Of a stretch of DNA of 64,000 nucleotides, positions 9,378-50,900 are shown piece after piece (within the stretch, counting starts at the first letter, position 1; every line of letters begins with the position of its first letter). A program made the position numbers and the translations under genes. The notes under the pieces were generated by a model, which made no database searches, was not told the DNA's origin, and worked only from the letters and a program-made list of their open reading frames with translations. The DNA is from a virus (Duplodnaviria > Caudoviricetes): positions 20,769 to 84,768 of the IMG/VR virus record IMGVR_UViG_3300033064_000910; one strand, given 5' to 3'.

Positions 9378-9380
9378 TTA

Positions 9381-9767: not shown

Positions 9768-10129
9768 TATTGATTTCTAAATGTTTCTAAATCGCCGTTT
9801 ATTTTAACCTCATCATTTTCATCCAAAGTATAAGGATTACCAAATCTATCAAATTCAGGAAAATTTACTTTTATAAATTTAATATAAAACGCATTTCCTT
9901 TATTTTCAACTATATAATCATTTTCAGATATAAATAACCCATTTATAAAAACATCGAATCTTGCAGATGGATTTCTTAAAGATTCTAGTTTTGAAAATAA
10001 TGTCTTAACTCTAACATTTTCAATTTTATAAATCCAATAGTAAGGGTGTGATAAATCGTGCGCAAATAATTCAAATTCATTTGGCTCATTTATTTCCTTC
10101 ATTATATTTTTTAATTGTCTTATATTCAT
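9767..10129 (-). CDS. Hypothetical virion adaptor protein
   Basis: 120 aa; motif FDVFING...Y.V...NAFYIKF...DEVKINGD shared with its neighbours. Confidence 0.65.
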   Translation of the reverse strand: MNIRQLKNIMKEINEPNEFELFAHDLSHPYYWIYKIENVRVKTLFSKLESLRNPSARFDVFINGLFISENDYIVENKGNAFYIKFIKVNFPEFDRFGNPYTLDENDEVKINGDLETFRNQ

Positions 10130-23110: not shown

Positions 23111-23113
23111 ATG

Positions 23114-23145
23114 CAAATATACGAAAAAAGCTTGGAATAACCAAG
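23114..23145 (-). promoter_or_regulatory. Bacteroidota-type sigma-A promoter
   Basis: Minus strand CTTG-N20-TATATTTG (consensus TTTG-N19-21-TAnnTTTG), 3 nt before the ATG. Confidence 0.75.
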
Positions 23146-32503: not shown

Positions 32504-35269
32504 TTATCTTGAAAATTTAAAAATACCAAGTATTTGATTAAGAGGTGCAAATGCTCCGGTTAATTTGTATGTATTACCATTATACACAAAAACTAACCCC
32601 TCATTAGGAACAATTTTATCAAATCCCCCCAAAGAATTTAATCTTTGTAATTCTATTTTTAACTTATCTAATTGAGATGCAGTACCAGTTGCTTTTAATG
32701 ATTTAATAGCACTACCCAATTCAGCTCTCATCTTTTTAGTTGCATCTGATGGGTTTGCTGTAAGTACCGATTGCGCAAATGCTAATACATCTGCACCAAC
32801 ACCTAAGAATATCTCCTCAAATTTCATTATGTTTTCCTTTGATATCTTAGCTTGGTCTTTTTTATCCATATTATCAGCCCATGCTTTTATTTTAGCATCT
32901 TGTATTGTAGCGATACGAAATCCCTTATCACCAAACGCCCATCGTTTAACTAATCCTATTTTTTGTTGTGCATCTAAACCCTTTGCATTTTTATTTACCA
33001 AATCGGTCCAATATGCTTGATGGTAATCAGCAACACCCGCTGAATCTGATAATTTATATTCCGATTGTAATTTATTTATCATTGAAATATATTTACCTTG
33101 CTTTTTAGTCAATTCTTCGGATTTTGGCAATGATAACATTGGTGGTCCTTGTATTGTGTATGTCGATTGTACATGCTTATTAACCTGCTTAATCATTCCA
33201 GCCAATATACTTGCAGCTTGTTGGTTTTCACCAATTACCTCACCACTTTCATCATATTCAAATGTACCATGAAATACTAAAAGATTTTGGCCATATGGGA
33301 TTACGTTTGCATTCTTAGGATATATTACTTCCAAATTCATAAAACATGCACCATCTTTAAATATCTTTTTCTTTTGTGGTTCGGATAATGCAGATACTGC
33401 TGCAGACAAATCTTTCATTGCAAATGTATATGCATCGGTTAATGCACCCCTATTAGCAAAGTTAGTAGCTACTTGCCCTATTGTCATAGCACCCTCACCT
33501 TTGTTCTTTAAATGTGATTTATTTCTAGCTGCAACCAATCTACCATTTACCCAACTAATTGCCAATGCTTGCCCATCAGTCTTTTCTCTTGCTAATTCTA
33601 AATCACCATTCAATGCTCTTACCACAATTTGCTTTAAATCACCAAATGTAAGATTCATTTCAATATCAAACGGATGGTTCATATGTCCATAAGCCCCACC
33701 TTCTAATAATAATGATTCGTTTACTGATTCTTTCTTCAAACTTCTTTTTTGTTGAATCAATTGTTGTATTTCTGAAAATAAATCTGCAATTTCTTTATTT
33801 AATTTCTTTTCATCTGTACTCATTGGGGATTCTATATCAACATTAGAATAAAGTTTTTTCTTTTTTGCAATTAAAATATCTGCTTTTTTAAGTAAATCAT
33901 TTTTTACCTTATCTAAATCTTTTATAATTTCCGATGAAGTTGCTTCTTTTACCGGAGTGTATTCATCACTATCATCACCATCTAATTTAGATTTTAATTT
34001 CTTAACATCTTTAGTATCAGGTGCTCCATTGATATATCCACCTGGTAAACTTAAACCTACACCAGCTCCACCACCTAATCCCATCTCATCTAATAGGTTA
34101 TCAAAATCCTCAACTATTTCTTTAATATCTTCTTTTGAAATTATTGTATCTTTTTGATTTTCAGGAAGTTCCCAAAATCTTTTAGGTTTTTTTACTGTTT
34201 TTTTAGGTTTTACTTCTTTCCAATCTTCTACCTTAAAAGGGTCATCTGCTGGATTTAATGTACTTTTTTCTACATTATTTATTTTGTAATACGATTTTCT
34301 AAATTGAGTTTCAGTATCTTTTGTCTTACCAACTCCTCTCATATTATCCGCTTTGGGTTTATCTAATTGAATGTATCCACCTTGCTTATACCAATTTTCA
34401 GGCTTTTCTTTATTTAATATTCGTTTTTGTCTATCTGCTACAAATGATGTATCAGGTTCATCCGCTCCACTAAATCCACTATTAGATGCAGCTTCTTTTA
34501 ATTCTTCTTTTTTAGGAATTCTAAATGTTGCTACCTTCTTACCATTAATTGTTGGCATTCCCCAATCATCTGTACCTATTGTTTTTACTACTACTTTTTT
34601 GTTTTTGAATCTTCCCATTAGAATAGTATCTCCAATTTTGACATTTATTTTAATTTCCTCATTAATACATTCTTTTAAACTCTTTAACTTAAGAGTGATT
34701 AATTTGAATATTTGAGAATCAAATTTAGGATATGCTTTTGTAAAATTCTTTTTTCTTTCTTCCTCACTACCAGCACTTAACCAATAACGAACATCAGTAC
34801 CACTAATAGGATTTGCTGTTGCGGGTGAAGCGTACACATATCCTTTATCTAAATACCCTTGCTCTACTTTACCTTTATATGGAGTGAAGTATTTACCACT
34901 TAATCGGTTTTGGTCCTTTTCACCAACTACAACAATTAAACCAGTTGTATCAGAATCATACTTATTTAGTATTTCTTCGGGTCTATATGGATTTTTGACA
35001 TTAACAATTTTAGATGATGGTATCCCAAACATCTGCATCATTATTGCTTTCTTTTCCTTAAAATTAAATGGAGATTTCTTTGAATCGGTAACATTAGAAG
35101 TTCCGATATATACGCTATCCTTTCCGAATTTGCGTATTAAATTTTCATAAGTTGCGTAATGGCCCTTATGAAATGGTTGAAAGCGGCCAGAATAGACAAC
35201 AACTACTTTGTCCATTTCAGCCGCTTCATCCAATATTGTTTCTACTAAAAATTTTGCTAATCCTTTCAT
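32504..35269 (-). CDS. Multidomain protein: N-terminal HxGH nucleotidyltransferase (NadM/NMNAT-like) and C-terminal covalent nucleotidyltransferase (RNA-ligase-like) domain, with intervening modules
   Basis: SGRFQPFHKGH; EKTDG, NLEVIY, LVFHG, NEGLVF and YKLTG motifs; ESVNE linker at about 33716-33731. Confidence 0.7.
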   Translation of the reverse strand: MKGLAKFLVETILDEAAEMDKVVVVYSGRFQPFHKGHYATYENLIRKFGKDSVYIGTSNVTDSKKSPFNFKEKKAIMMQMFGIPSSKIVNVKNPYRPEEILNKYDSDTTGLIVVVGEKDQNRLSGKYFTPYKGKVEQGYLDKGYVYASPATANPISGTDVRYWLSAGSEEERKKNFTKAYPKFDSQIFKLITLKLKSLKECINEEIKINVKIGDTILMGRFKNKKVVVKTIGTDDWGMPTINGKKVATFRIPKKEELKEAASNSGFSGADEPDTSFVADRQKRILNKEKPENWYKQGGYIQLDKPKADNMRGVGKTKDTETQFRKSYYKINNVEKSTLNPADDPFKVEDWKEVKPKKTVKKPKRFWELPENQKDTIISKEDIKEIVEDFDNLLDEMGLGGGAGVGLSLPGGYINGAPDTKDVKKLKSKLDGDDSDEYTPVKEATSSEIIKDLDKVKNDLLKKADILIAKKKKLYSNVDIESPMSTDEKKLNKEIADLFSEIQQLIQQKRSLKKESVNESLLLEGGAYGHMNHPFDIEMNLTFGDLKQIVVRALNGDLELAREKTDGQALAISWVNGRLVAARNKSHLKNKGEGAMTIGQVATNFANRGALTDAYTFAMKDLSAAVSALSEPQKKKIFKDGACFMNLEVIYPKNANVIPYGQNLLVFHGTFEYDESGEVIGENQQAASILAGMIKQVNKHVQSTYTIQGPPMLSLPKSEELTKKQGKYISMINKLQSEYKLSDSAGVADYHQAYWTDLVNKNAKGLDAQQKIGLVKRWAFGDKGFRIATIQDAKIKAWADNMDKKDQAKISKENIMKFEEIFLGVGADVLAFAQSVLTANPSDATKKMRAELGSAIKSLKATGTASQLDKLKIELQRLNSLGGFDKIVPNEGLVFVYNGNTYKLTGAFAPLNQILGIFKFSR

Positions 35270-35299
35270 ATAGTTATCTTACTATATAAATATTGGATA

Positions 35300-35701
35300 T
35301 TATTCTTTTACAACTTTCATACCAGAACTAGCCGGTTGTTGAGCTTGTTGTCTTTGCTGTTCAGCTTGTTGTTTTCTAGTAGGTGCTCCAGGTTGGTATT
35401 GAATTGTACCATCCTGTATATTAACTCTACCTTGAGGATATTGCTCATCTAAAGCATCGAGTATATCTCTTAATTCTTTATTAGTAGCTGCTAATTCTTC
35501 TTGTCCTTGTACTAAAAATTCATCCATAGAGATTATATCTAATTCAATTTCTTTTTTCCTAACATAGATTTTTCCAAATTCTTGAATAATCGATGCCGCT
35601 TTATCGTTTAGCTCGGTGATGCTTTTTAATACACCTTCATCTAATTTTACCGATTCAATCTCAATTGATTGTTTTTGTGGGATTTTATCTAATTCTGCCA
35701 T
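35300..35701 (-). CDS. Coiled-coil hypothetical protein, paralogue of 39497-39748
   Basis: TNKELRDILDALDEQYPQGRVNIQDG vs TNKELNIILADLNQKYPNGEINLVEG. Confidence 0.7.
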   Translation of the reverse strand: MAELDKIPQKQSIEIESVKLDEGVLKSITELNDKAASIIQEFGKIYVRKKEIELDIISMDEFLVQGQEELAATNKELRDILDALDEQYPQGRVNIQDGTIQYQPGAPTRKQQAEQQRQQAQQPASSGMKVVKE

Positions 35702-35736
35702 AAGTTTTTGTTTTTGTTTTTATATATATAAGTATA

Positions 35737-36126
35737 TTACTTTTTATTTTTTAATATATTAGTTGTACTAAATCCTTCTATTTTTTCAAAAAATTCAATA
35801 CTAGGTACATTCTCCAATCCTATTATTTCTTTATATTTGTATTCACCACCAATAACCATTATATCCGTATCCCATTCTTTTATACAATTACGAAGTTCAT
35901 CATCTGTATCAAACGATACAACTGAATTAACACCAGCAATAGCAGATAAGAATTCCATACGGTCATCTAATTTATTAAAAGGTCTTTCTATTCCTTTCTT
36001 TGAACGAACTCTTTCATCAGTATCGATACCCACTCTTAATACACCCAAAGATGCTGCGTGTAATATAAGTCTAATATGTCCAATGTGTAACACATCAAAT
36101 GTTCCATTTACCCAAATCTTTTTCAT
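35737..36126 (-). CDS. rfaE: Heptose 1-phosphate adenylyltransferase (RfaE/HldE domain II-like, ADP-heptose synthase)
   Basis: NGTFDVLHIGH, GIDTDERVRSKKGIERPFN..DDRMEFL, IMVIGGEY, GFSTTNIL. Confidence 0.8.
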   Translation of the reverse strand: MKKIWVNGTFDVLHIGHIRLILHAASLGVLRVGIDTDERVRSKKGIERPFNKLDDRMEFLSAIAGVNSVVSFDTDDELRNCIKEWDTDIMVIGGEYKYKEIIGLENVPSIEFFEKIEGFSTTNILKNKK

Positions 36127-37283
36127 TACAAAAATTTTTCTAATTCTTTTATTACCGTTTCAGATGTTATCAATTTTGTACATTCAAATTGTCTTTCAGT
36201 ACCTTTGTGGTCTGGACACCAATTCCAATCAGATGGGTCTAATCTCACTCTATTAAAACAACCTTCACATTTTCCTTTTGGTGCAGCAATTCTTACACAA
36301 TCTTCCATTTCTGCCCAATCGTATGAGAATCCACTTATTAAAACAGTTGGTACATTTAAACTCCAACTTAACCAACTTAATCCACTACCTATACCAATAA
36401 ATGCTTTTGATTTTAACATTTCATCCATAACTAATTCCAAAGGACCGTGTGGATGTTGAACTACTCCTTTTGGTAATTTGTTTCCCATATAATCATCCCC
36501 TTCCTTTGAAAGTAATTTTACCGTATATCCTTTGTTATTTAACCAATCAACAACAGTCTGCCATCCTGTTGGATTATTCCAAAATTTGGATTGTGCTGTA
36601 CCAAATACACCGATACAAACTTGTTTAAGTGATGGGTCTATTTGTAAGTTTCTTTTTTTAATTTTAGGTTTTACTTCTACAAAATCTAATCCCAATATAT
36701 CAGAACACATTTTTTGCATTGTTTGTGCTTTTGGGTCTATTGGATTTTTATAAAGATTAATTCTACTATCATCGTTATAAAACAATCCAATTTTATACAT
36801 TGCATATAGTCCTTCTACATTTGTTCCTGGCTCCACAAATGATATTTCAGGATATTGGTCTATAAACATATGATTCATAAATGTTGAAGTTATTACCTTA
36901 CAATTATGTTTTTTTCTAAATTCATCTACATATGCAAACCAAGCCAATGAATCTCCTAATGCCTTTGAATCTATTGCTATATATACACGTTTATCCTTTG
37001 CATCGTAAAGATATTCATACCACAATTTTCCATTTTCATAAATTTTTATATTCCACTCTACAAAATATTCTATACTACATTTACACCAACAATTATTTTT
37101 TATTGTAGTTGAATAATAAATTTTTCCACTTTTGTTATCTATAAATTCAACGGTATAATCAGAACTTATATTTCCCTGTACTTCCACATATGGACCATTG
37201 ACAAAATAAATTATTACTTTATTTTTTACTTCAACTATATTGTTTTTATTTTTCTTTAAATTATCGTATATCATTAACTCCAA
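36126..37283 (-). CDS. aah: Autotransporter strand-loop-strand protein O-heptosyltransferase (AAH/TibC family)
   Basis: N-terminal beta domain ending YFVEWNIKI, ALGDSLAWF, FIGIGSGLSWLSW, and four-Cys iron finger CEGC...WCP...FECTK. Likely start is 37274 (TAATG coupling). Confidence 0.88.
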   Translation of the reverse strand: MELMIYDNLKKNKNNIVEVKNKVIIYFVNGPYVEVQGNISSDYTVEFIDNKSGKIYYSTTIKNNCWCKCSIEYFVEWNIKIYENGKLWYEYLYDAKDKRVYIAIDSKALGDSLAWFAYVDEFRKKHNCKVITSTFMNHMFIDQYPEISFVEPGTNVEGLYAMYKIGLFYNDDSRINLYKNPIDPKAQTMQKMCSDILGLDFVEVKPKIKKRNLQIDPSLKQVCIGVFGTAQSKFWNNPTGWQTVVDWLNNKGYTVKLLSKEGDDYMGNKLPKGVVQHPHGPLELVMDEMLKSKAFIGIGSGLSWLSWSLNVPTVLISGFSYDWAEMEDCVRIAAPKGKCEGCFNRVRLDPSDWNWCPDHKGTERQFECTKLITSETVIKELEKFL

Positions 37284-39451
37284 GTTTTAACTGTTAAATC
37301 TAATAAAGAAAATCCTTCCGCTTGTTTACTATACAATTTGTTAGTTGTATAACGTGGTCTTGGATAATTAGCAAATACGTGATTATACCAAAGGTCTCCA
37401 ACATCCCAACCACAATCTTTTAATCTATCTGCCCACCATTGCTTTTCTCTATTTGGAATTAAATAACAATGTGCAAGGTCTTGATTCGGTGCTGTTTTTG
37501 AAAACAACTCATCTATTTTTTCTTTACTTCTCGATGGATTATCTGCGAATGAAATGAATGGTACATCATCTCTTTCCGATAAGAAACATGCTCTATGTAC
37601 TATCTCAACAAATTCTTCTAATCCAGTATAGATAAATGCATCTGCTTCAAATACTAAAGTGTAATCAAAGTTTTCAGTATCCATAGTTTCTAATGCCATT
37701 CTATGTGCCAAATAACATCCGTAGTGTCTACCTGTCATCCATCCTAAACCTGCACCAGGATATAATTCTCCCGGTTTATTATCTTTACTTATATGTTCAG
37801 GCCTTCTACAATTCTCAGCAGGCGCAAATCCTTCGTATGGTTGGTTTACAATTGGTTCATAATACATTCCATATTTTTCCAATTGTTTAATAGATTGAAT
37901 AGATACTCTTTCTCTCATATCATCCGGTCTAGTCAACATATGCTTTATTTGAATACGAGGTTTCTTACGATACCAAGTTCTAAATCCTCTACTAAATTGT
38001 TTATAAAAGAATTCATCTGCCGCTTGTGTTACGCCTGGAAAATAACTTCCACCATAATCATCCCCACTAATAATACCACCTGGTTTTATTTTATTATACC
38101 ATATTTTTATATCATTAGTAACATCTTCGTATGAATGTCCAGCATCTAACATTATATAATCAATACTATTATTTGTAAATTGATTAGCTGCATTATGTGA
38201 AGTATCTTTTATAATATCAAACGAACCATAATTATTTGAAAGAACTGTATTATCTATAAATTCATAAAATATATCTCCATTAAATGCTCCTACAATATTT
38301 TGGTGCAACTCCTCATCATCAGTTCCTTTGAAAGTATCTATTGTTACAAAATTAACTTCTTTTTTTAATTCTTTAAGTTTATCTAACAAATAGTTTGCGG
38401 ATTTACCAAGCCAAGTTCCAACCTCAACCAATGTAGAATTAGGTGTAACATTATCAGCAACATAATCGTATAAATCATTGTAAGAAAAATAACCAGGTAC
38501 TTCATTAAATTCAGGTTGTAATTTTTCTAAAATAATTCGTTTAGTTAATTTTAAATCATCATCTATATAAGTTACTAATGGATTGGTATCGTATGTATCC
38601 AAATATGTATATAACTTTCTAAATATAGAAGGTAATTTATAACTCAATGCTTCTTTTACAGACAATGGGTTTAATTCTAATTTAGAACTAAAATAAAACA
38701 TATCACACGCTGAATAGAATTTATCCACATCATTTCTTTCTCCCCATATAATACAATTATCAGGAACAAATTTCATCAATGGACCCCAATAATGTTCAAA
38801 ATTACCAGCTTGATTTCCTACAAAGTGAAATTTAATTTTATACTTTTCTAATTGTCTTGCTATTGCAAATATTTCAGCCTGATTTTTACCAGGTGCAAAT
38901 AATCCAACATTAAGTATGTGTTTCCAAGTTGGGTCTAATCCTAATTCTTTTTGAGCAGCTGATTTATCAAATGCATATTCTTCAATAGGGTATTCCCATA
39001 CATCAGTTTCTACTCCAGTATCAATAAATTTCTGTCTACTCCATTCGGATACTAAAACATATCTATCAGGATGATAAGATATTTCAGATGGATTTGTCAA
39101 TGAACCATGTGTTGATGCTACTATAAAATACTTTCGTTTATCTGAAAATATTCTGTCTAATATGTTTGTTGCTAAATCGAATTGTGGTATCTCTTGAAAA
39201 TGTATAATATCAGGTTGGAATACATTTATAATATCAACTATTTGTGATTTGTTATCTCCAAGTGTGTGTATAGGTACTAATGATTTGATTCTATTTTTTT
39301 GAACCACGAAAGCATCACCACCACTATTGTTTATTTCAACAATTTCGATTTCAAACTCATTGATAAAATGCTTTACCTGTTTGTATGTATATTGAGGTTG
39401 TCCGCCGGTAGAAAGATGTGGACAGACATAAAGTAACTTTTTCTTTGCCAT
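37274..39451 (-). CDS. GT4-like glycosyltransferase + class I SAM methyltransferase + GT25-like glycosyltransferase fusion
   Basis: HLSTGGQPQY, GLFAPGKNQ, SKLELNPLSVKEAL; LVEVGTWLGKS, LDAGHSYE, GGIISGDDY; YGCYLAH, LVFEADA. Confidence 0.8.
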   Translation of the reverse strand: MAKKKLLYVCPHLSTGGQPQYTYKQVKHFINEFEIEIVEINNSGGDAFVVQKNRIKSLVPIHTLGDNKSQIVDIINVFQPDIIHFQEIPQFDLATNILDRIFSDKRKYFIVASTHGSLTNPSEISYHPDRYVLVSEWSRQKFIDTGVETDVWEYPIEEYAFDKSAAQKELGLDPTWKHILNVGLFAPGKNQAEIFAIARQLEKYKIKFHFVGNQAGNFEHYWGPLMKFVPDNCIIWGERNDVDKFYSACDMFYFSSKLELNPLSVKEALSYKLPSIFRKLYTYLDTYDTNPLVTYIDDDLKLTKRIILEKLQPEFNEVPGYFSYNDLYDYVADNVTPNSTLVEVGTWLGKSANYLLDKLKELKKEVNFVTIDTFKGTDDEELHQNIVGAFNGDIFYEFIDNTVLSNNYGSFDIIKDTSHNAANQFTNNSIDYIMLDAGHSYEDVTNDIKIWYNKIKPGGIISGDDYGGSYFPGVTQAADEFFYKQFSRGFRTWYRKKPRIQIKHMLTRPDDMRERVSIQSIKQLEKYGMYYEPIVNQPYEGFAPAENCRRPEHISKDNKPGELYPGAGLGWMTGRHYGCYLAHRMALETMDTENFDYTLVFEADAFIYTGLEEFVEIVHRACFLSERDDVPFISFADNPSRSKEKIDELFSKTAPNQDLAHCYLIPNREKQWWADRLKDCGWDVGDLWYNHVFANYPRPRYTTNKLYSKQAEGFSLLDLTVKTWS

Positions 39452-39458
39452 ATTGTAA

Positions 39459-39490
39459 CAAATATACGAATTTTTTTTAAAATAACCAAA
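39459..39490 (-). promoter_or_regulatory. Bacteroidota-type sigma-A promoter of the glycosylation operon
   Basis: Exact TTTG-N20-TATATTTG, 7 nt before the ATG. Confidence 0.85.
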
Positions 39491-39496
39491 TTTATT

Positions 39497-39748
39497 TTAG
39501 AAAGTTACATTACCTTCTACTAAATTAATTTCTCCGTTTGGATATTTTTGATTTAAATCGGCTAAGATTATATTTAATTCTTTATTTGTTTGAACATATT
39601 CATCTTCTATAACTAATATGATTTTATTCAATTCAGCTACATCCAAATGCAATTGTCCTGCATTTGCAATTAGTTCGTTTTTGCGGTTATTAAGTTCTTT
39701 TATCTTTGATAAAATACTTTCTTCTAATTTTTCAGTTTGTAATCCCAT
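39497..39748 (-). CDS. Coiled-coil hypothetical protein, paralogue of 35300-35701
   Basis: KLEESILSKIKELN vs KLDEGVLKSITELN; late motif at 39768. Confidence 0.7.
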   Translation of the reverse strand: MGLQTEKLEESILSKIKELNNRKNELIANAGQLHLDVAELNKIILVIEDEYVQTNKELNIILADLNQKYPNGEINLVEGNVTF

Positions 39749-39782
39749 AATATTATTTTTTATATATATAAATATATAGTTT

Positions 39783-42700
39783 TTATATTTTTGAAGAACT
39801 TATGTATGCTTCTAAAGCTTCCACTTTATCCATTAATATTTGAACTGCTTTTGTTAGTGGAACTACTATTTTGTCATAAGATAATGAATCTGTTGTTACT
39901 AGACTTCCACTAACTCCATAAGAAACATATCTTCTTAATTCAGGATCCTCATCTAACCATTCTGCTATAAATCCACCCATTTTACCAATGTATTCTTTTG
40001 CGTTTGGCATCGGATATGTCATCGAATAATCTTCTTTACCATTTGTTTCGTATGTAGTACTATTAACTACTTGCAAAGGTGTATATAAAATAGGTTTTAA
40101 TTTTTTTATACTATCATATGCACTATTTGGATAATCTTCTATATCCGTTTTAATTCTTATAGTAGATGAATCAAATATCAATTCTCTACCAGATATACCA
40201 AATACGGTATTACCAGGTCTTAAGCGTGCGGTTGCAACGTTTGCTGTTTGCGATGGCCAATTTTGCCCAGTCATCTTTGAATTAGTTCCATCTGTTCCAA
40301 AACGAATACCACCACTTGTGTTGGATGTTCCAATGTAACCACCCGCTATCAATATGTTATTTCCAGCACCAGATACGGTCACATCACCCGCCAATACCTC
40401 AATTGCTTTTGCTGTTGCTGATACGTTGGTGTTTGTAATTTGTATACCAGGATAGGACCCATCTGTTGCTATTTGTATGATTGGTGTAGTTGTAGTTCTT
40501 TTAACTGAAGCGTAGTTTGTGGCATTTGATAGAACAATCAATCCATCTCTGCCAATTTCAGTTTGCGCGAATTGTAGTGATGGTGCTATCGAAGCTGGGT
40601 CTATCTGTCCATAAACAATCAAGGTTGCCGTATAGGGAATGTATCCATATAGACTTGTCACTGTATGGAAATAATAAGTACCCGCCGTTGGAAACGTCAC
40701 CGAAAACGTTCCACCACTCATAGAAGTGTAATCAGTTTCGGATGGACCAGTCATGCCACTATTATACGCTATGGTTTGATTTGAAATATTCGTACCACTG
40801 CGTGCGGCAGTTGTCCAACATTCTATTGATACACTAACGCTTGCATATCCATTAATAAAATTACTATCCGATTCCAATGTTATATAATCACTTCCAAAGT
40901 TTGGGGAAGCTAAAACATATGTACCTGCATCTGCAATAACAACTCCAACAGTATCAAGTGTCTCTTGTTGTACATATAGACTTCCCAAACTCGTATATGT
41001 ACTGGTGCCATAACTTCCAAAGTTATATGATGCAGGAGCATCAATGTTAACTGAGGTGCCTGATGATGGGATTGTAACTTCACCTTGCTTAATAAATACT
41101 CTTGGTACATTACTAGAATCGGAAATCTTAATTTGTTTAAGAGATGCATCTAAAACAATTTGTTCACTATTATGTTGAAAATTTCCGTCCGAAACTTCCC
41201 AATCACCAATTTGAGAAACAGTATTCGCATCGGTTTCGATTTTTCCTCTAATTGTTAAAGTTGCATTATCCCAACGCATATATGGTGGTTTACTACCTAC
41301 TGCGAAGTGAACATCATCAGGATTATTTCCAAATCTAAATTGTCCATCTTCTGCTAAATAAAATCCTGGAGCTGAACCCGTTATCAATGATGATACATCT
41401 GCACTCCTTATAAATCCACTCGTACTACTTTCTTGTCCTAATACTAAACCACGAGTAATAGTTGCATCTTGCGCTAATAAAATATCAGTTGCAACCGAAC
41501 TAAATGTTGCTCCAAATGATTCCCAATATGTTGTGTAACTACCACCAGTAGTAGGTTTTGTAGTTGTATCAGCTGGGGTATGTGTTACTTTACAAAGATA
41601 GTATTGCCCATCACTTCCTTTTACAACATCACGTCTTGTAGATAATGCTGGAGATGCTGGGTCTCTAAAATATTGTACACCCTGAGTCCACGGTCCTCTA
41701 TATACTACACCAGGACCGGGTCCACCTGCAGTTCCGGCAGTTCCCGCAGTACCACCACTACCCGCAGTACCGGATGTTCCTGCTGAGGCCGCAATTGACC
41801 AAGGACCTGAACCAGGATATCCTGTTAGTGCGTTTGTATTATTTGTTGCAATGTGTTGATAATTTTGTGCTTGAGCCGATGTACATTGCCAACTCTGGCC
41901 GGCATATGAAACTATATCATTTGTGAAATAGGTATCACCAGCCGTCCAAGCTCCTCTTAATGAACCTTCACTAACTCCTGGTTCAAGTTGTCTAATTGCT
42001 CCTATAATTGTTAAAGTATCACCATCCCAAAACATTCCCTTTCCAGAAGTAGAAGTGGTTTTGATTGAGAGCCTACCGGTAGTACCAGCTGCGCCATTTT
42101 CATATATTCCTAAAAATACACCCGGTCTATCATATCCTATAACTCCGGTAGCTGCTGCCGATGAACCCGCAGTTCCCGCAGTTCCCGCAGTACCAGTTTG
42201 TCCAATTGCAATATATGGGTCAGTTCTTCCACCCGCAATTACAATATTTGCGAATGGAGTGTTTATATCTTTAACTCCAACGTTAATTGTATTTTTTACA
42301 AATGATTCTTCAAATATTGCAATCTTAGCTGCTACAAAGAATTCTTCTTCACCCAAATATTGCCAATGGTCACTATCAACCCAAGGTGCCGCAGAACCAC
42401 CATTATCCGGTTGTTGAGGTCCTACAATTATTGCTGGGTTGTGTTTTTTTCCAGTATTAGGACCCGAGCCACTTGCAGCTGCCCAATAATGAGTTTCGTT
42501 ATTATAGTTTGATGGATTAGGCCATATTACCGCATCTCTACGTTTATTTGTAGTTTCAACCGCACCGATGTAATCAACACTACCACTCCAAATACCTCTC
42601 ATTACAATACCAGGTCCTGTATTACCTTCATATTGTATTGATAATGATTGTGTTTTAAATATAGTGCTTCCACTTACAATACTTCCAGAATATTCACAAT

Positions 42701-45700
42701 CTATTTGATAAACAATTTCTGCGGTTGGATTATTTACAGGATCATCCCAACCGGTAATACTTCCAATTGTTGCAGGAGTTCCACTTATGAATCCGCCGGC
42801 AGTTAAACCGCCGGCTAAAGTAATATGACCTGGTTTTGATGATAAACTTACTCTACATTTATTTGGAAATCCAAATGTACCAAAAGCATCATATTGTCCA
42901 CCGCCAGGTCCAACAAAAGATGCCGTATTTGTTAATTCAAGATTACCCCTATATGCTCTAATAATGTTACTTGTTCCTGTTATATCATATTCTCCGGATA
43001 CCTTATAAACTACTGATGCATTTTCATTTGTCATTGTCACCGCATAAGGAGCAGGTGGTGTAAATTGTACAGATATTGATTGAGTTACAAATTGTATTTG
43101 TCTAGCTAATGGTCTTACCAGCACATTAGTTGATGAGGAATCTCCTTCAAAATCTACTCTATATACAATTTTTCCAGATGTATTTACAGCTGGTGAAGTC
43201 CAACTAATTATATCTCCAATTGTTGCCGGATTGGTTGTAGTGAGAGGAAATACGGTTGATTGATTAATCCAATTATCTTTGTAAACAATGGATGCTGATG
43301 AAAATCCTAATACCCCAATTGGTTCATTGTTAAAATCTAAATCATTTGGATTGTTAGGAAGTGGTAATGGATTTGCGTTTGTTAGTTGTTCATTACCATT
43401 GAATGTTGTTATTTTCATTCCCGTACCGGTAATATTTGTTGTCCACAAATCCGCAGTTATAGAACAATTATCATTGGTTGAAGCGAGTTTATATGAATCA
43501 GCCCCTGCCTTTACACCAGATATGGTTAATTGAGCTTCTGCTCTATATGGGTTTACAGTTGGAGATGTATATGGATTTCCGTCTGTTATTTTAACTTTAA
43601 ATGTTTTTTGTGTATCAGGTGCTATATCAGAATAGTTCACTTGGTCAAACAAATCACAAAAAGCGGGATTTCCAGAACCAACAAATTGTGAATTAAATGT
43701 TTCAGAACCATCTAAGGCAACATCGTATATAGAAAAATATACTTTATCCGCAGATGATGTTGTATTAAATGCAGTTGCAGATAATATAATTGGATTATTA
43801 GATAAAGCACTAACTCTACCATTTCTATCATAGTTTACTGTATATGAAGATGCTTTAAAATCAACACTACGTGCTTTGGGTGGTGTTACGTTTTTTGTAA
43901 ATGTTTGAGTACGAGTAAAAATAGATGATGTATATAGATGTCCGGCTCCTAATGCAAACGGATATACTTGAATGGTATATATTGCATTAGCCGAAACATA
44001 TGGATAATCAAATCTATTAAAATTTAAAGTTGCTGTACTAAATGATGATGAACTAGGTCCATGTGTATTAAATAACGTTGGACTTGTAAAATCAGTACCA
44101 GAGCCAGTTCTAATAGGCCATATTCCTAATGAACTACTAGTTTCTACTTTATTTATTCTCCAAGTACCAGGATCAGTTGATTGAGTTGTAAATCTTAAAA
44201 AATCATCTCCTTCTTTTACTTGAATTGTTGTATTAGCAGCTGCATAATTTGTATTAGTAACAAATCCAACTTCATCTGCTATCAATGATGGTGATAGTGG
44301 TGATATCAATATTTGAATTGGTGGAGCTCCTTCTAATACCTTAGTATAATTAACAACCACACTCGCCGTATAAATTGAAGATGTAAAGTATGGATGTATA
44401 ATTAATGGATACTCAATACTTCCACTTAATTCTCTCATATTAGATGAAGCACTTACTATCAATGATGATGTATATGGTACTCCAAATGATGATGTAAATT
44501 GTACATTACCAGCTTTAACATTTTTTTCAATTATAGAAGAAGTTGCTATATAAAAAGTACCATGTGTACTTAAATCATTTAAAGTATAAGCACTTGAACT
44601 AAACGCAAGATAGGAAGCACCTTGCTTTAATTTAATATCAGTAATAGATGGTCTAAAATCATTTATAACCCCTCTTGAGTTTGCTCCAAGCGTAATTGAT
44701 ATCGGATTTACTTCAAATACAATACTTTCATCTCCTTGCTTACCTTCCGGTACAATTGTAAATGTTTTATCAATGCTCACCGATGCCGAAGTCCAAGGCT
44801 CAGTATAAACAAATGTTAATGTTAAATTTTTACTTTGATTTAAAGGACTCCTAACATTGCCAGTTGGTGTTTGTGATGGTATTATATTTTTATTCTCATC
44901 TCTAGCAACAACCGTTAAAGTTGGGTCTAAACTTTGTGTATGATAATATAACCAATATTCAGGTACCCAATCTTTATTAATTGACATTGATGGATATACC
45001 TGAAATGATGATGTTATGTTTTCATTTTCGCCCGCAGTACCTCTTTTTGCAAATGATGATGTTGCGAATGCAAATGTTGGTCTAAATAAATTTTCAATTC
45101 TCGGATTTATTGTAAACGTATCTACATTAAATAATACTTTACCACTATCTAAACCATCTTGTAAATCTTCCAATATGATTGATGCCAATATAGAAGAAGA
45201 TACTTCATATGCAAATTTACCCGCATTAGAAGATGATGGTATTAAGAAAATTGTTCTTCTAAAATCTATTGAATCTCTATTGAATACTGCATTATAATCT
45301 ATTTGACTTGTACCAATAGAGCCAGTTGTTAACCCATAAATCATGCCACTTGCAGTAACGTATGATAAGTTTACAAATTTATCAGGTTCTAAATTTGGAT
45401 TTGATTCATAATTTTTTGAACGAGATATAATGTGTAGTTGGATATCAGAAAAGTTTTTGTAAGATTGTTTACTTAATAAAATATCATTTATACCATCAAT
45501 TCTTACCGCTTGAATTTCCAAAGATGAAGTGCTACTATTTCTAATTTGAGTTCCTCTAAACGGTCTAATAATGTGGTTTACTCCGCCAAATCCATCCAAT
45601 ATTTTGTATATATTAATTGTATCGGTGAATCCTTCACATTCTCCGGTTATCTTTACCAATTGAACATTTATATCAGTTCTAGATCCTGTGAAATCCTGAA

Positions 45701-47648
45701 CTCTCATAAAAACATTACCAGTTCCTATTCCCTGCAATACACCAGGATATTGTCCACTACCAGAATAAAGTGGTATTGGCTGTTGATATATAGATTGGGT
45801 ATATTGTGATGAAGATAATGTGTTTCCAAAAAAATCAAATGATGCCGATGTATAATGTACCGAACCTGTTAGTAAAGTTTTTTCTTCCTCTATTGTTATA
45901 ATTGTAGGTGGTACTGGATTAGAACCAGAATCAAATTGAAATCCTGCACTCGATGCTATTAATCTTAATTGTTTTCTAATTGTTTGTAAATTACCCCCAT
46001 CAAATGTTTTAGATTCTTCTACTAATACGGGAACATAGTTGTTATTTATATCATAAAATTCAAAACGATAATCAAAGGTTTCAATTGGTAAACTTCTTGG
46101 CACTGATTGTATAAATGTTATCTCATCAGGAGAATATGCCGTTTCTTGAGCGGCTCTTAAACTTACATCAGCTATATGCCATCCAGTTCCTTTTACATCA
46201 AAATATAGTTTTGAATTTGTAAAATTTTCAGCTTTAAAATTTACAGACGCTATTTGTTTTTGTAAAATAACAGATGAATCCGCTTTAAATGTTACTATAT
46301 CTTGTTCATCTCCACCAATTACCGAATCTTTAGAACCACTAATAAAAACTCTAAGTTGACCTAATTGTCCTATGGTTGTACTATTTCCTCTGTAATTTAA
46401 TCCAATTGTATATTCTGTATTTTCGGTTAGATTAAATGATTTTGATGTGTAATAATAATTCGATGATAAGTTTCCATCTAATTTTACCGAATTAAATAAA
46501 TAATCTTGATTAAATGTTGTTGTTAAAGAATTTGATGATGTTACCCAATACCCAGTTGGGTGTTGTGATTTAAAATTTTCTTTATCAAAAATTCCATAGA
46601 ATTCTTGATTTTTTATTTGAGATTCTAAATCTATAAGTAATTCATTTGATTCTAATTGTATTTCCTGAATAAATTGATAATCCGCTAAATCTGATTGTGA
46701 TTTTCTAAATATTTTTACTCTAGCAACATCTCCAACAAATGTAGTTAAATCTAGGATATTAATTTTAGCAAAAGAACCAGTCAATGCCGTTTTTAAATTA
46801 TCAACTCCTTCTGTATAATTAAAAGATGCGGTAAATCCTTCATTTGTAAAATTTTCAACTGGAGCAGCCGAACCCAATGAAGTATCGCTATATGGTGGTT
46901 GAACAATAATTTGTCTGTCATTTATTATTTCAGTTACTAATGGTCTATAATCTAAATTTGGAAATTCTAAATAAGTATCAACTACTGATGCTGTCCAAAA
47001 TGCATTACCTACCGTAGTTAGTAGATATGAAGTTGGTGATGCATAATTTAATAATGGTTGCCCAGCTACAGGAGTTTGTGATGTACCATTTACTGAACCC
47101 GTTTGTGTTTTTTGTGCAACAACGTTTGAAAATATTGGTTTTACTATTTCGGTAATATTAACAACCGGTCTTTTATAAAATCTAACTTTATCTTCATTGG
47201 AAAGTAATCTGTTTACTTTAAATGTTTTTTCCCATTTTAAATTATAAACACTTTTCCACTCATCTGGAATTTCTTGCGTTATCCCATCTACATCTATGTA
47301 ATTTTTTGCTTCTCCTAAAATTGTAATCTTAGCTTCCCCAATTGGAGTATCTTCATAAACATAAACTGCAATTAATTTTGATAATCCCTCATAGTATTCA
47401 GGAACACCATTACCAGGCTCATAATATATTGGGTCTCCATTAACATCTAATATTTGAATTTTTATTTCAGTTGTTTCTTTTAGATATGGAGAGCCTTCGA
47501 TTAAAAACCCATTTTTACCGCCAGTAAATGTATTGGCAAATTCAGTTATTTTGAAATAAGTTGAATTGGGGTTATCATCTACCAAAAACGTATTATAATT
47601 TGTTAATGGTGCTGTTAATGTTTCAGCATATTTTTTTATTATCGGCAT
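39783..47648 (-). CDS. Large tail/host-recognition protein with repeated beta domains, three CBM5/12-like modules and a C-terminal intramolecular chaperone (peptidase S74-like)
   Basis: 2621 aa; RG.W.....Y...D modules; GTA/GTS triplets; C-terminus SSTIRIKTDIED...LKP...GFIAE...LSYDKIVVPLTKAVQIL. Confidence 0.8.
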   Translation of the reverse strand: MPIIKKYAETLTAPLTNYNTFLVDDNPNSTYFKITEFANTFTGGKNGFLIEGSPYLKETTEIKIQILDVNGDPIYYEPGNGVPEYYEGLSKLIAVYVYEDTPIGEAKITILGEAKNYIDVDGITQEIPDEWKSVYNLKWEKTFKVNRLLSNEDKVRFYKRPVVNITEIVKPIFSNVVAQKTQTGSVNGTSQTPVAGQPLLNYASPTSYLLTTVGNAFWTASVVDTYLEFPNLDYRPLVTEIINDRQIIVQPPYSDTSLGSAAPVENFTNEGFTASFNYTEGVDNLKTALTGSFAKINILDLTTFVGDVARVKIFRKSQSDLADYQFIQEIQLESNELLIDLESQIKNQEFYGIFDKENFKSQHPTGYWVTSSNSLTTTFNQDYLFNSVKLDGNLSSNYYYTSKSFNLTENTEYTIGLNYRGNSTTIGQLGQLRVFISGSKDSVIGGDEQDIVTFKADSSVILQKQIASVNFKAENFTNSKLYFDVKGTGWHIADVSLRAAQETAYSPDEITFIQSVPRSLPIETFDYRFEFYDINNNYVPVLVEESKTFDGGNLQTIRKQLRLIASSAGFQFDSGSNPVPPTIITIEEEKTLLTGSVHYTSASFDFFGNTLSSSQYTQSIYQQPIPLYSGSGQYPGVLQGIGTGNVFMRVQDFTGSRTDINVQLVKITGECEGFTDTINIYKILDGFGGVNHIIRPFRGTQIRNSSTSSLEIQAVRIDGINDILLSKQSYKNFSDIQLHIISRSKNYESNPNLEPDKFVNLSYVTASGMIYGLTTGSIGTSQIDYNAVFNRDSIDFRRTIFLIPSSSNAGKFAYEVSSSILASIILEDLQDGLDSGKVLFNVDTFTINPRIENLFRPTFAFATSSFAKRGTAGENENITSSFQVYPSMSINKDWVPEYWLYYHTQSLDPTLTVVARDENKNIIPSQTPTGNVRSPLNQSKNLTLTFVYTEPWTSASVSIDKTFTIVPEGKQGDESIVFEVNPISITLGANSRGVINDFRPSITDIKLKQGASYLAFSSSAYTLNDLSTHGTFYIATSSIIEKNVKAGNVQFTSSFGVPYTSSLIVSASSNMRELSGSIEYPLIIHPYFTSSIYTASVVVNYTKVLEGAPPIQILISPLSPSLIADEVGFVTNTNYAAANTTIQVKEGDDFLRFTTQSTDPGTWRINKVETSSSLGIWPIRTGSGTDFTSPTLFNTHGPSSSSFSTATLNFNRFDYPYVSANAIYTIQVYPFALGAGHLYTSSIFTRTQTFTKNVTPPKARSVDFKASSYTVNYDRNGRVSALSNNPIILSATAFNTTSSADKVYFSIYDVALDGSETFNSQFVGSGNPAFCDLFDQVNYSDIAPDTQKTFKVKITDGNPYTSPTVNPYRAEAQLTISGVKAGADSYKLASTNDNCSITADLWTTNITGTGMKITTFNGNEQLTNANPLPLPNNPNDLDFNNEPIGVLGFSSASIVYKDNWINQSTVFPLTTTNPATIGDIISWTSPAVNTSGKIVYRVDFEGDSSSTNVLVRPLARQIQFVTQSISVQFTPPAPYAVTMTNENASVVYKVSGEYDITGTSNIIRAYRGNLELTNTASFVGPGGGQYDAFGTFGFPNKCRVSLSSKPGHITLAGGLTAGGFISGTPATIGSITGWDDPVNNPTAEIVYQIDCEYSGSIVSGSTIFKTQSLSIQYEGNTGPGIVMRGIWSGSVDYIGAVETTNKRRDAVIWPNPSNYNNETHYWAAASGSGPNTGKKHNPAIIVGPQQPDNGGSAAPWVDSDHWQYLGEEEFFVAAKIAIFEESFVKNTINVGVKDINTPFANIVIAGGRTDPYIAIGQTGTAGTAGTAGSSAAATGVIGYDRPGVFLGIYENGAAGTTGRLSIKTTSTSGKGMFWDGDTLTIIGAIRQLEPGVSEGSLRGAWTAGDTYFTNDIVSYAGQSWQCTSAQAQNYQHIATNNTNALTGYPGSGPWSIAASAGTSGTAGSGGTAGTAGTAGGPGPGVVYRGPWTQGVQYFRDPASPALSTRRDVVKGSDGQYYLCKVTHTPADTTTKPTTGGSYTTYWESFGATFSSVATDILLAQDATITRGLVLGQESSTSGFIRSADVSSLITGSAPGFYLAEDGQFRFGNNPDDVHFAVGSKPPYMRWDNATLTIRGKIETDANTVSQIGDWEVSDGNFQHNSEQIVLDASLKQIKISDSSNVPRVFIKQGEVTIPSSGTSVNIDAPASYNFGSYGTSTYTSLGSLYVQQETLDTVGVVIADAGTYVLASPNFGSDYITLESDSNFINGYASVSVSIECWTTAARSGTNISNQTIAYNSGMTGPSETDYTSMSGGTFSVTFPTAGTYYFHTVTSLYGYIPYTATLIVYGQIDPASIAPSLQFAQTEIGRDGLIVLSNATNYASVKRTTTTPIIQIATDGSYPGIQITNTNVSATAKAIEVLAGDVTVSGAGNNILIAGGYIGTSNTSGGIRFGTDGTNSKMTGQNWPSQTANVATARLRPGNTVFGISGRELIFDSSTIRIKTDIEDYPNSAYDSIKKLKPILYTPLQVVNSTTYETNGKEDYSMTYPMPNAKEYIGKMGGFIAEWLDEDPELRRYVSYGVSGSLVTTDSLSYDKIVVPLTKAVQILMDKVEALEAYISSSKI

Positions 47649-47981: not shown

Positions 47982-50900
47982 TTAAAATTTAATCTTAGAA
48001 AATCCGTTTTCTTTTTTTATTTCTATCAGCCCATCTACAATATCCCTCATTTGTTCTAAGTGAGAAATTACCCAAATGAAATCAAATTGAGTTTTAAGGT
48101 ATTGCATCATCATAAATAGAGATGATAGGTTATCTGCATCCAATGTACCAAATCCTTCATCTATTACTAAGAAGTTTGGACGGGGTAACCCACATATGTT
48201 TATAAGTGCTACTCTGATTGCCAATCCACTAATAAATTTTTCCATACCACTACCCATTTCCAATGTCCACTCTTGGTCTTCATAGACAAGTTTTGCATTA
48301 ATATTTTTACCATCCGTATCCATTGAAAGTGAAAAATCTACAACCTGTGCTAATATATTATTTACTTCATTTTCAATTACAGGCATTGCTTTGGAAATAA
48401 GTTCATACGGTACTCCATCTTTTTTTACCGCATCTAAATAATAAGTGTAAAGTGTATTTTTATTTTCTAAATCTTTTACCTCACTTATCTTTGCTTGAGT
48501 GGTATTAATAAATGAATCAATAGAACCAATTTCACCAGTTTTTTGTAAAATCTTTTTATTTGTATCTGAAATATCTTTATCAAATTCCTTTTTTTGAATT
48601 TCTAAAGTTTTAATGCGTTCATTTATTTCTTTATTTTGTAGTATGGTTTCTGATATTGCATTGTACCTATTGATATCCGCTTTTATTCCGGAAAGCTGTG
48701 TTATTAGGAGTTCATATTGAGTTCCTAAACCATCCCACTCCGCTTGTGTTTTTTGTATAATGATTTCACCTTTTTGATATTTGTTACGAAGTTCTACTAA
48801 ACTACCCCATACATCTTCAACATCAGAAAAAGGTTCAGTTGCTTTGATTAAAGCATGGTGACCGATGTTAAGAGTTTCTAATTGAGATTCTTGTGTTTTA
48901 ACAACTTCTTTGGTAGCGATTGCATCCTTAACGAATACATTATCCATACAATACTGACAATTAGGGTCATATTCATGTTGTTCCAAATGTTTTAACTTAT
49001 CCAAATTAGATTCGTATTGTGATTCTAATCTATCTATTTGTTGTTGTACATCTGCAATTTTACCCTTTGCTAAATCCCACTCTTTTTTGGCATCATCTAT
49101 TGATAATCCATTTATTTCCGAATGTTGATTTATGGATTGTGATACTTCATTTAAAAGTGTTTTGTATTCGTTTATCCTACTTTCTTTATCTTCCCTATCC
49201 TTTCTGTTAGTTACCAATTTGCTCTCAATGCTGCCCTTCGCTGCCTCTAACGTGGATAGTTCTAATCGACTATCAATTGGGGTTAGTGATTCCTTTAGGT
49301 CAGATATTTGATTTTGGATTCCGTCCTTTTTTTTATTCAAATCTTTAAGGGTTATCTCTAACTCGTTTACAATTTTTTTTGATTCCTTTAGGTCGGTTTC
49401 TTTTGTCGCTAATTCGGTTGTAAAATCAGTACGTTTGAAATTTCTGATAAGTGCACTCACTTCCTTAATGTCTTCATTAGCAGCCTCGTACAATTTATCG
49501 AATATATCCAATCCCATAAATTGGGCCATCAGGTCTTTCCTTTCGGATTGTGATTTATCAATGAATAAGGTATTGTTTCCCTGCAAAGATAGTGCAGTAA
49601 GTACAAAGTCTTCATACCTACCAACGTATTGTTCAATGACGGAGTTAGTATCTCTCCTTTCAGTTCCATTAAGGGATTCTGATATACCATCCTTTACCCT
49701 CCAGAATTGAACATCTACTTTAACGTTCCTTCCATTATTAACCATCCTTGCTTCTCTCCTTATATAGTAAGGGATACCCTCTACATTAAAGTCCAATTGG
49801 CAATGGAAGTCTGATTTACGATTGTTTAGTATATTACTTGCTTTGAATGTCCTGCTACATCTGTCAAACAAACAAAATGATATCGCATCAAATAGAGATG
49901 ATTTTCCACTAGCATTTGGTGCAAATAATCCCATTAGTCCGCTAACCTTATCAAAATTAATTATATTATCTTCACCATAGGAAAACATATTAGAGAATTC
50001 AAACCTTAACGGCTTCCATTGTACGTTTCGGGTTAAGTCATCTATTACTATCTTACTATTAATTTCTTTATTCAATGATTGGATTCCTAATATATCTTCC
50101 GGCGTTACAAATGGCATCATCCTTTGTATATAATCGGTTATTAAAGAGTTTTGATAATTAACATTCGTAATATCTTCAAGTTCTATTTGGTTATCTCTAT
50201 CACCAGTTTTTTTCTTTGCTAAACTATCCGTTTTTATGATTGTAAAATCTTCAACTCCATACTTTATTTTGATTTCAGTTATTGCCCGCTTTGTATCTGC
50301 GGCATCGGTCTCAGCAAATCTTACTCTAAGTCTTGGAAACTTTGGTAAATTAATTACATCCGGCACTACACCATTTACGATATCCATAGTATAATACCCA
50401 TAATCATTTTGGATATCAACTTCCTCATAGGTCATTGTATCTAAATCCCAAACTAAGAATCCGTGCTTATCTAATGTTTCACCGAAGTTTTGTTGTACCA
50501 AAGAACCAGCGTACACAATCTTACATCCGCTTGGTGATACCATCTCTTGTCTTTTATGTATATCACCTAAAAGGGCTAAATCGTATCCATCAAATATATC
50601 AGTTGTAAAGTGTCTACTACTAACTACATAACCCACATCGGTTGTAGAGTTATCAACAGGTCCGTGAAATAGTGCAATCTTTTTATTTGCAAATATAGTA
50701 TCAGCTTTGGGCCAATTATCTTTGTTATCAAATATACTGAATACTGCAAAATCAACATCTCCAATTCCGTAAACTTGCGTATCTTTTAAATACGTTAGGT
50801 TTGGTAACTTCAATGCATCAACGATTGGAGTAAGTACATCCAATCTATCTGAATTATTCATATTACAATCGTGATTACCAGCGATTACAATAGTAGGACA

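Follow-up and report, generated by a model that had tools for sequence, protein, structure and literature searches.

The viral record IMGVR_UViG_3300033064_000910 carries a three-gene cassette centred on an Aah/TibC-family glycosyltransferase, which we examined within a 64-kb stretch of that record (the window) whose genes all lie on the minus strand. Judging from the sequences, we narrowly favour the interpretation that this cassette attaches heptose to Ser and Thr residues within Gly-Ser/Thr tracts of fibres encoded by the phage itself, the resulting glycan being extended and methylated afterwards. We observe how the genes are built, which families they belong to, which residues and gene order are conserved, where the enzyme falls on the tree and how it is linked in genomes to repeat proteins; which sugar is used, on which acceptor, in what order and when, and to what benefit, we infer. 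As an earlier annotation made from the DNA letters (the original prediction) had proposed, the cassette consists of three genes, encoding in order a three-domain protein of 725 amino acids (aa), the 382-aa TibC-like enzyme and a 129-aa HldC-like nucleotidyltransferase (Table 1). Stop and start codons overlap as TAATG at both gene junctions, and translational coupling, part of the same prediction, is therefore plausible. The ATG start was chosen for the middle open reading frame (ORF) because its homologues are 382 aa long and do not use the longer listed TTG start (37283).

By curated cut-off and by the key residues of its sequence, the 382-aa protein is a true member of the Aah/TibC (BAHT) family. 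The hidden Markov model (HMM) search suggested as a check in the original prediction scored 281.5 bits on TIGR04414 (hepto_Aah_TibC, 'autotransporter strand-loop-strand O-heptosyltransferase'), above the cut-off of 200, with 359 of the 374 profile positions aligned, and the JGI pipeline already labels these genes with the family name. Residues of TibC were taken from the literature (PMC4358343; structures 4RAP and 4RB4) and mapped through a HMMER alignment to 4RAP (E 6e-52). The catalytic Asp110 is kept as D108, three of the four donor contacts (Thr226, Lys230 and Trp305) are kept as T226, K230 and W301, and the four iron-finger cysteines (Cys339/342/358/370) align with C336/C339/C353/C365; Phe368 is also kept. 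The catalytic Asp and the Thr/Lys/Trp contacts are invariant or nearly so in 20 distant homologues, and the listed TibC-mapped positions, kept or changed, are identical across the window enzyme and 80 relatives. The likeness to the TibC/TibA and Aah/AIDA-I systems thus comprises a common curated HMM family, a GT-B core, the catalytic Asp, the Thr/Lys/Trp contacts, the four-Cys finger and Phe368, to which may be added a hydrophobic thumb tip that reads Tyr-Met here where TibC has Phe-Val. Like TibC, the enzyme probably forms an iron-finger oligomer, and like TibC and Aah it may act in the cytoplasm on Ser-rich repeat proteins before they exit. At the N-terminus, the 4RAP alignment begins at TibC residue 42, inside a beta-barrel that spans residues 1–97 (PMC4358343), and PF21129 is unreported for the window enzyme but present in Microcystis phage Mel-JY01 and in 8 of 64 relatives.

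The 725-aa protein would act next, adding further sugars and O-methyl groups. The GT4 and methyltransferase (Methyltransf_24) domains originally assigned to it both score above their Pfam cut-offs, while the third, GT25-like domain falls short of its own (Table 1). The GT4 region (residues 27–317) also matches the glycosyltransferase family phrog_2170, and the methyltransferase domain has a weak match to TylF O-methyltransferase. For the GT25-like domain, JGI names fragments 'GR25 family glycosyltransferase' and PF01755 is found in two homologues. Its AlphaFold model (pLDDT 88) has as best Foldseek match in the PDB human COLGALT1/GLT25D1 (E 1e-7, with a TMq of only 0.58), followed by mimivirus R655 and then the PBCV-1 capsid glycosyltransferase; a PDB sequence search with the 725-aa protein gave no match.

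Such domains recur in company with TibC-like ones. Mel-JY01 encodes a TibC domain fused to GT4 (1226 aa, annotated 'FkbM methyltransferase'), and the huge phage LR756501 has a 738-aa TibC-GT4 fusion behind a 1140-aa GT4 protein. A HMMER search returned 1515 clusters (50% identity) at E≤0.001, with a median length of 738 aa among the best 150; the nearest 64 clusters include fusions to GT4 in 29, to FkbM methyltransferase in 11 and to Methyltransf_24 in 5. The frequency with which GT4 and methyltransferase domains form fusions with TibC-like ones elsewhere makes a single, common glycan pathway likely here, and we count the TAATG junctions as further support.

The 129-aa protein would top up ADP-heptose from heptose-1-phosphate. 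Its best NCBIfam match is rfaE_dom_II (TIGR02199) at 88.8 bits, and it matches phrog_7878 over its full length at 121.9 bits. Among PDB sequences it matches best to 5x9q, an entry whose deposited name is putative cytidylyltransferase and which we take to be Burkholderia HldC. HIGH and FSTT motifs are present in the translation and are common to the whole cytidylyltransferase-like superfamily. We counted donor genes across 80 related loci: the HldC-like gene stands alone in 11, which is also the window's arrangement, and in 16 it is directly followed by a 247-aa PfkB kinase, whose best family is rfaE_dom_I (99.6–104.1 bits), followed by ribokinase (37–51 bits). With split RfaE II and I genes lying behind a TibC-type enzyme, ADP-heptose is the most likely donor. 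The arrangement resembles HldC/HldE-II and HldA/HldE-I, these being the best families for the 129-aa gene and the relatives' kinase, with HIGH and STT motifs and the two HldE activities on separate genes. The donor-site residues of the transferase are the same in the 28 sequences that have HldC (27 loci and the window) and the 53 that do not, and the HldC-like gene would be auxiliary, joined by a heptose kinase in some relatives only. This fits a patchy ADP-heptose pathway in Flavobacteriales, as 40 of the 101 genomes sampled across the order to which one Flavobacteriales metagenome-assembled genome (MAG) belongs carry a true rfaE_dom_II; we infer that patchy supply by the host could explain patchy carriage of donor genes by the phages.

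The acceptors would be Ser/Thr hydroxyls in proline-free Gly-Ser/Thr-Ser/Thr tracts, to which the TibC-like enzyme would move heptose from ADP-heptose. We defined a tract, for this analysis, as proline-free G-[ST]-[ST] repeats, and the corresponding DNA pattern as five such triplets. In the window the longest candidate lies in a 1000-aa collagen-like tail fibre (15% Ser, 16% Thr and 14% Gly), and the adjacent 2621-aa fibre-like protein, with its short Gly-Thr-Ala/Ser tracts, is probably a second acceptor. The role of the 1000-aa fibre is suggested by gene neighbourhoods elsewhere. Heptosylation of Ser-rich fibres, as originally proposed, thus has its best candidates in these proteins. Possible benefits include fibre solubility or folding, protease resistance, or masking.

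Those neighbourhoods link the enzyme family to repeat proteins. The DNA tract pattern matches Mel-JY01 and LR756501, in both cases with ORFs lying a few kb at most from the TibC gene, and is absent from the genomes of two TibC-less relatives. Tract ORFs occur in 21 of 80 genome loci with TibC homologues, the bacterial ones nearly always adjoining the gene. The proteins from Methylococcales, Arenicellales, Burkholderiaceae and other MAGs are small and carry, besides a GSS/GTS tract, either a signal peptide or a lipobox and in many cases an acidic tail; those in phage-like contigs are large and fibre-like. Methylomicrobium lacus, whose genome is complete, encodes next to the enzyme gene (locus L093) a secreted protein with a Ser-rich stretch rather than strict triplets. 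In the bacterial loci no partner but the secreted repeat protein recurs, the other neighbours being unrelated, ordinary chromosomal genes.

Family trees, built by quick search, split into two clades with 100% SH-aLRT support and place the window enzyme in a sister clade to Aah. The Aah/AIDA-I clade (42 rows) contains E. coli Aah, which adjoins AIDA-I, with enzymes from Burkholderia, Oxalobacter, Lentisphaerota and Negativicutes, and has tracts in none of its rows. The window clade (45 rows) joins the window enzyme with other phages and the tract-linked bacteria, and 27 of its rows are tract-positive, phage rows counted; the 21 tract-holding genome loci above all belong to it.

Some tract-bearing loci deserve separate description. 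In Methylococcales, Arenicellales, Burkholderiaceae and further gammaproteobacterial genomes (loci L086–L088, L093, L095, L098, L099, L109–L116 and L128), a TibC-like gene directly adjoins between one and three genes for small proteins, secreted or with a lipobox, that consist of (GSS/GTS)n tracts and poly-Asp/Glu tails. This two-gene module has ordinary chromosomal surroundings, and DUF6502 recurs in five of the loci. LR756501.1, a 735-kb huge phage, holds a huge Gly-Thr/Ser-Ser triplet array on the minus strand at about 103.5–105.2 kb and beyond, with 1273 overlapping pattern matches, distant from its TibC genes. In Mel-JY01 (L001), long open frames with Gly-Ser/Thr-Ser tracts lie on the plus strand at 2–3052 and 9143–9986, opposite deposited coding sequences named 'hypothetical protein' (739–2298 and 9361–9898), and the wrong strand may have been annotated for these collagen-like genes in the deposited record.

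Transcription would start at the cassette's own promoter. The host-type promoter of the original prediction holds as a predicted promoter for a Bacteroidota host: an exact match to the Bacteroidota consensus TTTG-N19-21-TAnnTTTG precedes the first gene, with the end of the -7 box 7 nt upstream of its ATG, and its outer edge, 39490, is also where the originally described stretch ends. The consensus and the box position (-12 to -5) are documented for Flavobacterium (PMC9723704). The pattern itself occurs at chance level in the window (3 matches, 2.4 expected), but both boxes are kept upstream of the 725-aa gene in 66 of 67 related loci, with varying spacer and distance to the ATG. An E. coli-type sigma-70 scan of 35200–40000, a consensus wrong for this host, gave 27 sites against 31.7 in shuffles, none convincing upstream of the cassette. 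Contigs from four lake RNA libraries match pieces of the operon at 88–99% identity, and are not counted as expression evidence because DNA carry-over is possible.

A different element precedes other genes of the window. ATATTTATA has 11 sites, all on the coding minus strand (for example 12840, 16298, 18715, 27858, 35285, 39767, 53864, 54838 and 56823), of which 10 lie in intergenic spacers 15–40 nt ahead of start codons. It is found ahead of structural genes and is absent ahead of the cassette, and it is a candidate phage-specific (perhaps late) promoter distinct from the host-type box.

Several findings weigh against heptosylation of the phage's own fibres, beginning with the sugar. In TibC, Arg286 contacts adenine N1, with activity abolished or largely diminished in the Ala mutant, and Pro300 is the selectivity residue for D,D/L,D-heptose (PMC4358343). 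These residues are V282 and G296 in the window enzyme, and Val takes the place of Arg286 in all 80 relatives (81 phage sequences in total). The Aah/TibC hallmarks of the original prediction hold for the family cut-off, the catalytic Asp and the four-Cys finger, but not for Arg286, nor does the enzyme fall in the autotransporter-linked clade. The 129-aa protein scores well below the rfaE_dom_II cut-off of 181.5 bits, and the relatives' kinase (about 100 bits) below the rfaE_dom_I cut-off of 345; the two also differ from HldC and HldA in their order (II then I), in the lack of any GmhA or GmhB seen, and in being accessory. The HldC-like gene is present in 27 of the 80 relatives and neither donor gene in the other 53, and rfaE_dom_II was not found in Mel-JY01, LR756501 or LR756504. 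What was called an ADP-heptose synthase gene is thus closest to domain II, and followed by a kinase in some relatives, yet is an accessory gene that misses the curated threshold. Of the other pathway genes that the original prediction wished to see, the window ORFs scanned yielded no gmhA, gmhB or kinase, nor did four related contigs, each 26–32% complete, yield GmhA (SIS_2); this does not show absence, because the window is about a third of the genome, and a kinase does occur in the relatives described above.

These findings could also be read as protein glycosylation in which the first sugar is not heptose and the 129-aa enzyme makes another activated compound, our proposal otherwise holding. 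The substitutions of Arg286 and Pro300 would suit such a sugar, as would the sub-threshold rfaE_dom_II score of a protein that also matches glycerol-3-phosphate cytidylyltransferase over its full length (52.5 bits), and the lack of the HldC-like gene in most relatives and in the three other TibC-bearing phage genomes. We nevertheless consider it unlikely: rfaE_dom_II is 36 bits ahead of that next family, the RfaE-I-like kinase is coupled in 16 relatives, Thr226, Lys230, Trp305 and Asp110, which hold the beta-phosphate and heptose, are invariant, and Arg at position 286 is retained by some other members of the same clade.

The acceptor and the timing bring counterpoints of their own to a fibre target. 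A distance of 20 kb separates the tract-bearing 1000-aa fibre gene from the cassette, and LR756504 shows no tract match despite its TibC gene. Eighteen rows of the window clade are tract-negative, 10 of them at loci where at least one flank is shorter than 3 kb, and the association amounts to about 5–6 independent bacterial lineages plus the phages, since the sequences are related. The cassette's promoter being host-type, late co-expression with virion genes cannot be assumed, and the glycosylation itself is a prediction from the genes.

Host envelope proteins, such as secreted Ser-rich or GSS-repeat lipoproteins and phage receptors, could instead be glycosylated to block superinfection or remodel the surface, leaving virions unmodified. 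An acceptor class of this kind exists, given that bacterial enzymes of the same clade adjoin secreted or lipobox proteins with GSS/GTS tracts, and the conserved sigma-A-type promoter, with no ATATTTATA, allows the early expression that a host target would fit. This alternative nonetheless strikes us as improbable, a step below a change of sugar, since every related locus that extends far enough has the cassette beside fibre and packaging genes, the unrelated phages Mel-JY01 and LR756501 also place a TibC gene near their own tract ORFs, no lysogeny genes are shown in the window, and the tract sits in the phage's own fibres. Classical autotransporter heptosylation, or a lipopolysaccharide (LPS)-core (GT9) heptosyltransferase, acquired from the host is very improbable: the automatic TIGR04414 name and a weak GT9 Pfam match (16.9 bits) speak for it, but no autotransporter was found among the window ORFs scanned, the enzyme belongs to the sister clade of the AIDA-I-adjacent Aah, and the LPS heptosyltransferase I model gives 22.8 bits against a cut-off of 185.

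Beyond the window, the whole sister clade may be a widespread system that O-glycosylates proline-free Gly-Ser/Thr (collagen-like) tracts, taking the form of two-gene modules with secreted lipoproteins in bacteria (Methylococcales, Arenicellales and others) and of expanded cassettes with GT4, methyltransferase, GT25-like and ADP-heptose genes in lake phages, the latter making heptose-based methylated coats on virion fibres. Iron-finger glycosyltransferases would thereby gain a new class of acceptor, and phage particles a type of modification not seen before. This is plausible from the comparisons above, but taken as a whole we lean slightly against it.

Table 1. Predicted features of the cassette, its candidate acceptors and its neighbours, in window coordinates (SAM, S-adenosylmethionine).
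Feature	Position	Strand	Basis
GT4 + SAM-methyltransferase + GT25-like protein, 725 aa	37274-39451	-	ORF and domain searches
GT4 (GT-B) domain, residues about 1-320	38492-39451	-	PF00534 38.6 bits (cut-off 26.4); PF13692 30.5 bits (over cut-off)
Class I SAM-dependent methyltransferase domain (Methyltransf_24, TylF-like), residues about 325-485	37997-38479	-	PF13578 68.4 bits (cut-off 26.3)
GT-A, GT25-like domain, residues 490-725	37277-37984	-	PF01755 18.9 bits, below cut-off 24
Aah/TibC-family O-heptosyltransferase, 382 aa from ATG	36126-37274	-	TIGR04414 match
HldC/RfaE-II-like nucleotidyltransferase, 129 aa, accessory donor-supply gene	35737-36126	-	Best family rfaE_dom_II, below cut-off
Putative Bacteroidota sigma-A-type promoter	39459-39490	-	-33 TTTG, 20-nt spacer, -7 box TATATTTG
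Collagen-like tail fibre ORF, 1000 aa	12891-15893	-	PHROG: collagen-like minor tail, tail fibre, tail spike
Proline-free (Gly-Ser/Thr-Ser) x32 tract, residues 58-154 of the 1000-aa fibre	15432-15722	-	Regular expression
Fibre-like protein, 2621 aa, directly upstream, second candidate acceptor	39783-47648	-	Synteny in related loci reaching it
Short Gly-Thr-Ala/Ser tracts of the 2621-aa protein, residues 1816-1830 and 1957-1980	42159-42203; 41709-41780	-	Regular expression
Coiled-coil protein, 83 aa, between fibre gene and cassette, membership in system uncertain	39497-39748	-	
Coiled-coil protein, 133 aa, paralogue of the 83-aa protein	35300-35701	-	tblastn cross-match

The cassette has the 2621-aa ORF on one side and TerL, portal and major head protein on the other, and this placement beside fibre and packaging genes is constant in the related loci that reach them. 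The wider window includes two small coiled-coil paralogues, a T4-type portal, adaptor proteins, the collagen-like fibre and a tail fibre of more than 3100 aa. The virion-gene setting described in the original prediction is thereby upheld, but the adjacent 'main tail protein' is not borne out, as the 2621-aa ORF has no PHROG family match. That protein has a weak match to CBM_5_12 and, among phages, its N-terminus alone matches, in Mel-JY01 and LR756508. An AlphaFold model of its last 420 residues (pLDDT 56.6) yielded, in a fold search, one beta-sandwich with middling matches to carbohydrate-binding modules (Z up to 7.6), including the carbohydrate-binding domain of a cyanophage short tail fibre (Z 6.5); the fold does not identify the protein. 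An S74-like C-terminal intramolecular chaperone, suspected by eye, was not borne out, with no PDB sequence match, no phage tblastn match and a pLDDT of 56.6 for the model just mentioned.

Two small coiled-coil paralogues bracket the cassette. The 83-aa and 133-aa proteins have a common C-terminal ending, 'YPxGxxN..xGxxx[FY]', and are syntenic in the related loci that reach them; an exact TTATATATATAAAAA stands ahead of both genes. The window holds three matches to TTATATATATAAAAA at no more than one mismatch, two of them exact, against 0.25 expected. The paralogues are possibly fibre chaperones or small trimeric whiskers. Also syntenic beside the cassette, and found near the TibC fusion in Mel-JY01, is a 921-aa protein (32504–35269, minus strand) with an NMN-adenylyltransferase-like nucleotidyltransferase domain at residues 23–160 and a long remainder without assignment, which falls in phage-only Atlas clusters with CTP_transf_like and DUF5661; it could be a second activating enzyme, or unrelated.

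The source is probably a large uncultured lake phage of a Bacteroidota host, an assignment based on promoter type, a GC content of 31% and the relatives. The enzyme is encoded, at 72–99% identity and in an unchanged gene order, on no fewer than 154 IMG/VR contigs, the transferase pair forming the core. Eight or more studies contribute lake and freshwater metagenomes that contain DNA of the lineage, which is also represented by 3237 protein clusters (E≤1e-10). The genome would be roughly 180 kb, since related contigs of about 50 kb are rated 26–32% complete. The major head protein is nearest to those of the uncultured huge phage LR756508 (54%), Mel-JY01 (51%) and the Flavobacterium 'immuto' phages (49%), and a megablast of 18 kb against phages gave no match.

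Two further features of the window may be noted. A single 1047-aa polypeptide (47982–51125, minus strand) combines an SbcD/Mre11-like phosphoesterase (residues 4–335) with an SbcC/Rad50-like ATPase (residues 323–1046), which in phages are usually two separate genes. A GIY-YIG homing endonuclease and a DNA N6/N4 methylase are encoded at 18138–18701 and 21788–23116 (minus strand), the endonuclease directly after the major head protein gene and the methylase with a weak I-TevI-type DNA-binding domain at its C-terminus.

Comparison with known systems indicates where the cassette stands apart. The window enzyme differs from TibC and Aah in being phage-encoded, in its sister clade and in the Arg286 to Val and Pro300 to Gly changes; it has no autotransporter nearby, its neighbours being Gly-Ser/Thr repeat proteins rather than beta-helix adhesins with 19-residue repeats, and it is coupled or fused with GT4, methyltransferase and GT25-like domains. 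Relative to the BAHT family, then, what sets the enzyme apart is the clade, one donor contact, the partner enzymes and the likely acceptor. In keeping with the statement in the original prediction that no phage system of this type had been characterised, the literature searched yielded no paper on a phage TibC-type enzyme, on heptosyltransferases with collagen-like proteins in phages, or on Mel-JY01.

Phage-encoded virion glycosylation has been shown experimentally in few systems, among them the mycobacteriophages, where phage-encoded enzymes are responsible according to the account of Freeman et al. given in a later paper (2023, Cell Host Microbe 31:1216, cited in PMC12582341). As far as that account goes, the resemblance lies in phage glycosyltransferase genes that stand beside structural genes and O-glycosylate the phage's own virion proteins. 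The mycobacteriophage system reportedly uses other enzyme families in actinobacterial hosts, with the C-termini of capsid and tail-tube proteins as acceptors, and is said to have no BAHT-type enzyme, heptose pathway or collagen-like tract. Glycosylated collagen-like fibres are known from the spores of Bacillus anthracis (BclA; PMC6222408, PMC10050317), and mimivirus L230, with a glycosyltransferase domain resembling GLT25D1, modifies viral collagen-like proteins by glucosylating hydroxylysine (PMC9614988). Both resemble our proposal in having surface fibres of Gly-X-Y repeats that carry glycans, on a spore and on a virus, and in mimivirus the likeness extends to a GT25-type domain working on viral collagen-like proteins, the GT25-like domain here having COLGALT1 as its best match. 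L230 acts on hydroxylysine, however, and the tracts of the window have no Lys. BclA glycans are rhamnose/anthrose oligosaccharides made by other enzymes. Neither system is known to have a BAHT-type enzyme or heptose.

If the cassette does act as we propose, an abundant lineage of lake phages would bear heptose-based, methylated fibre glycans affecting adsorption, stability and recognition, and the BAHT family would have a second, larger branch with a different class of substrate, in free-living bacteria as well as in phages.

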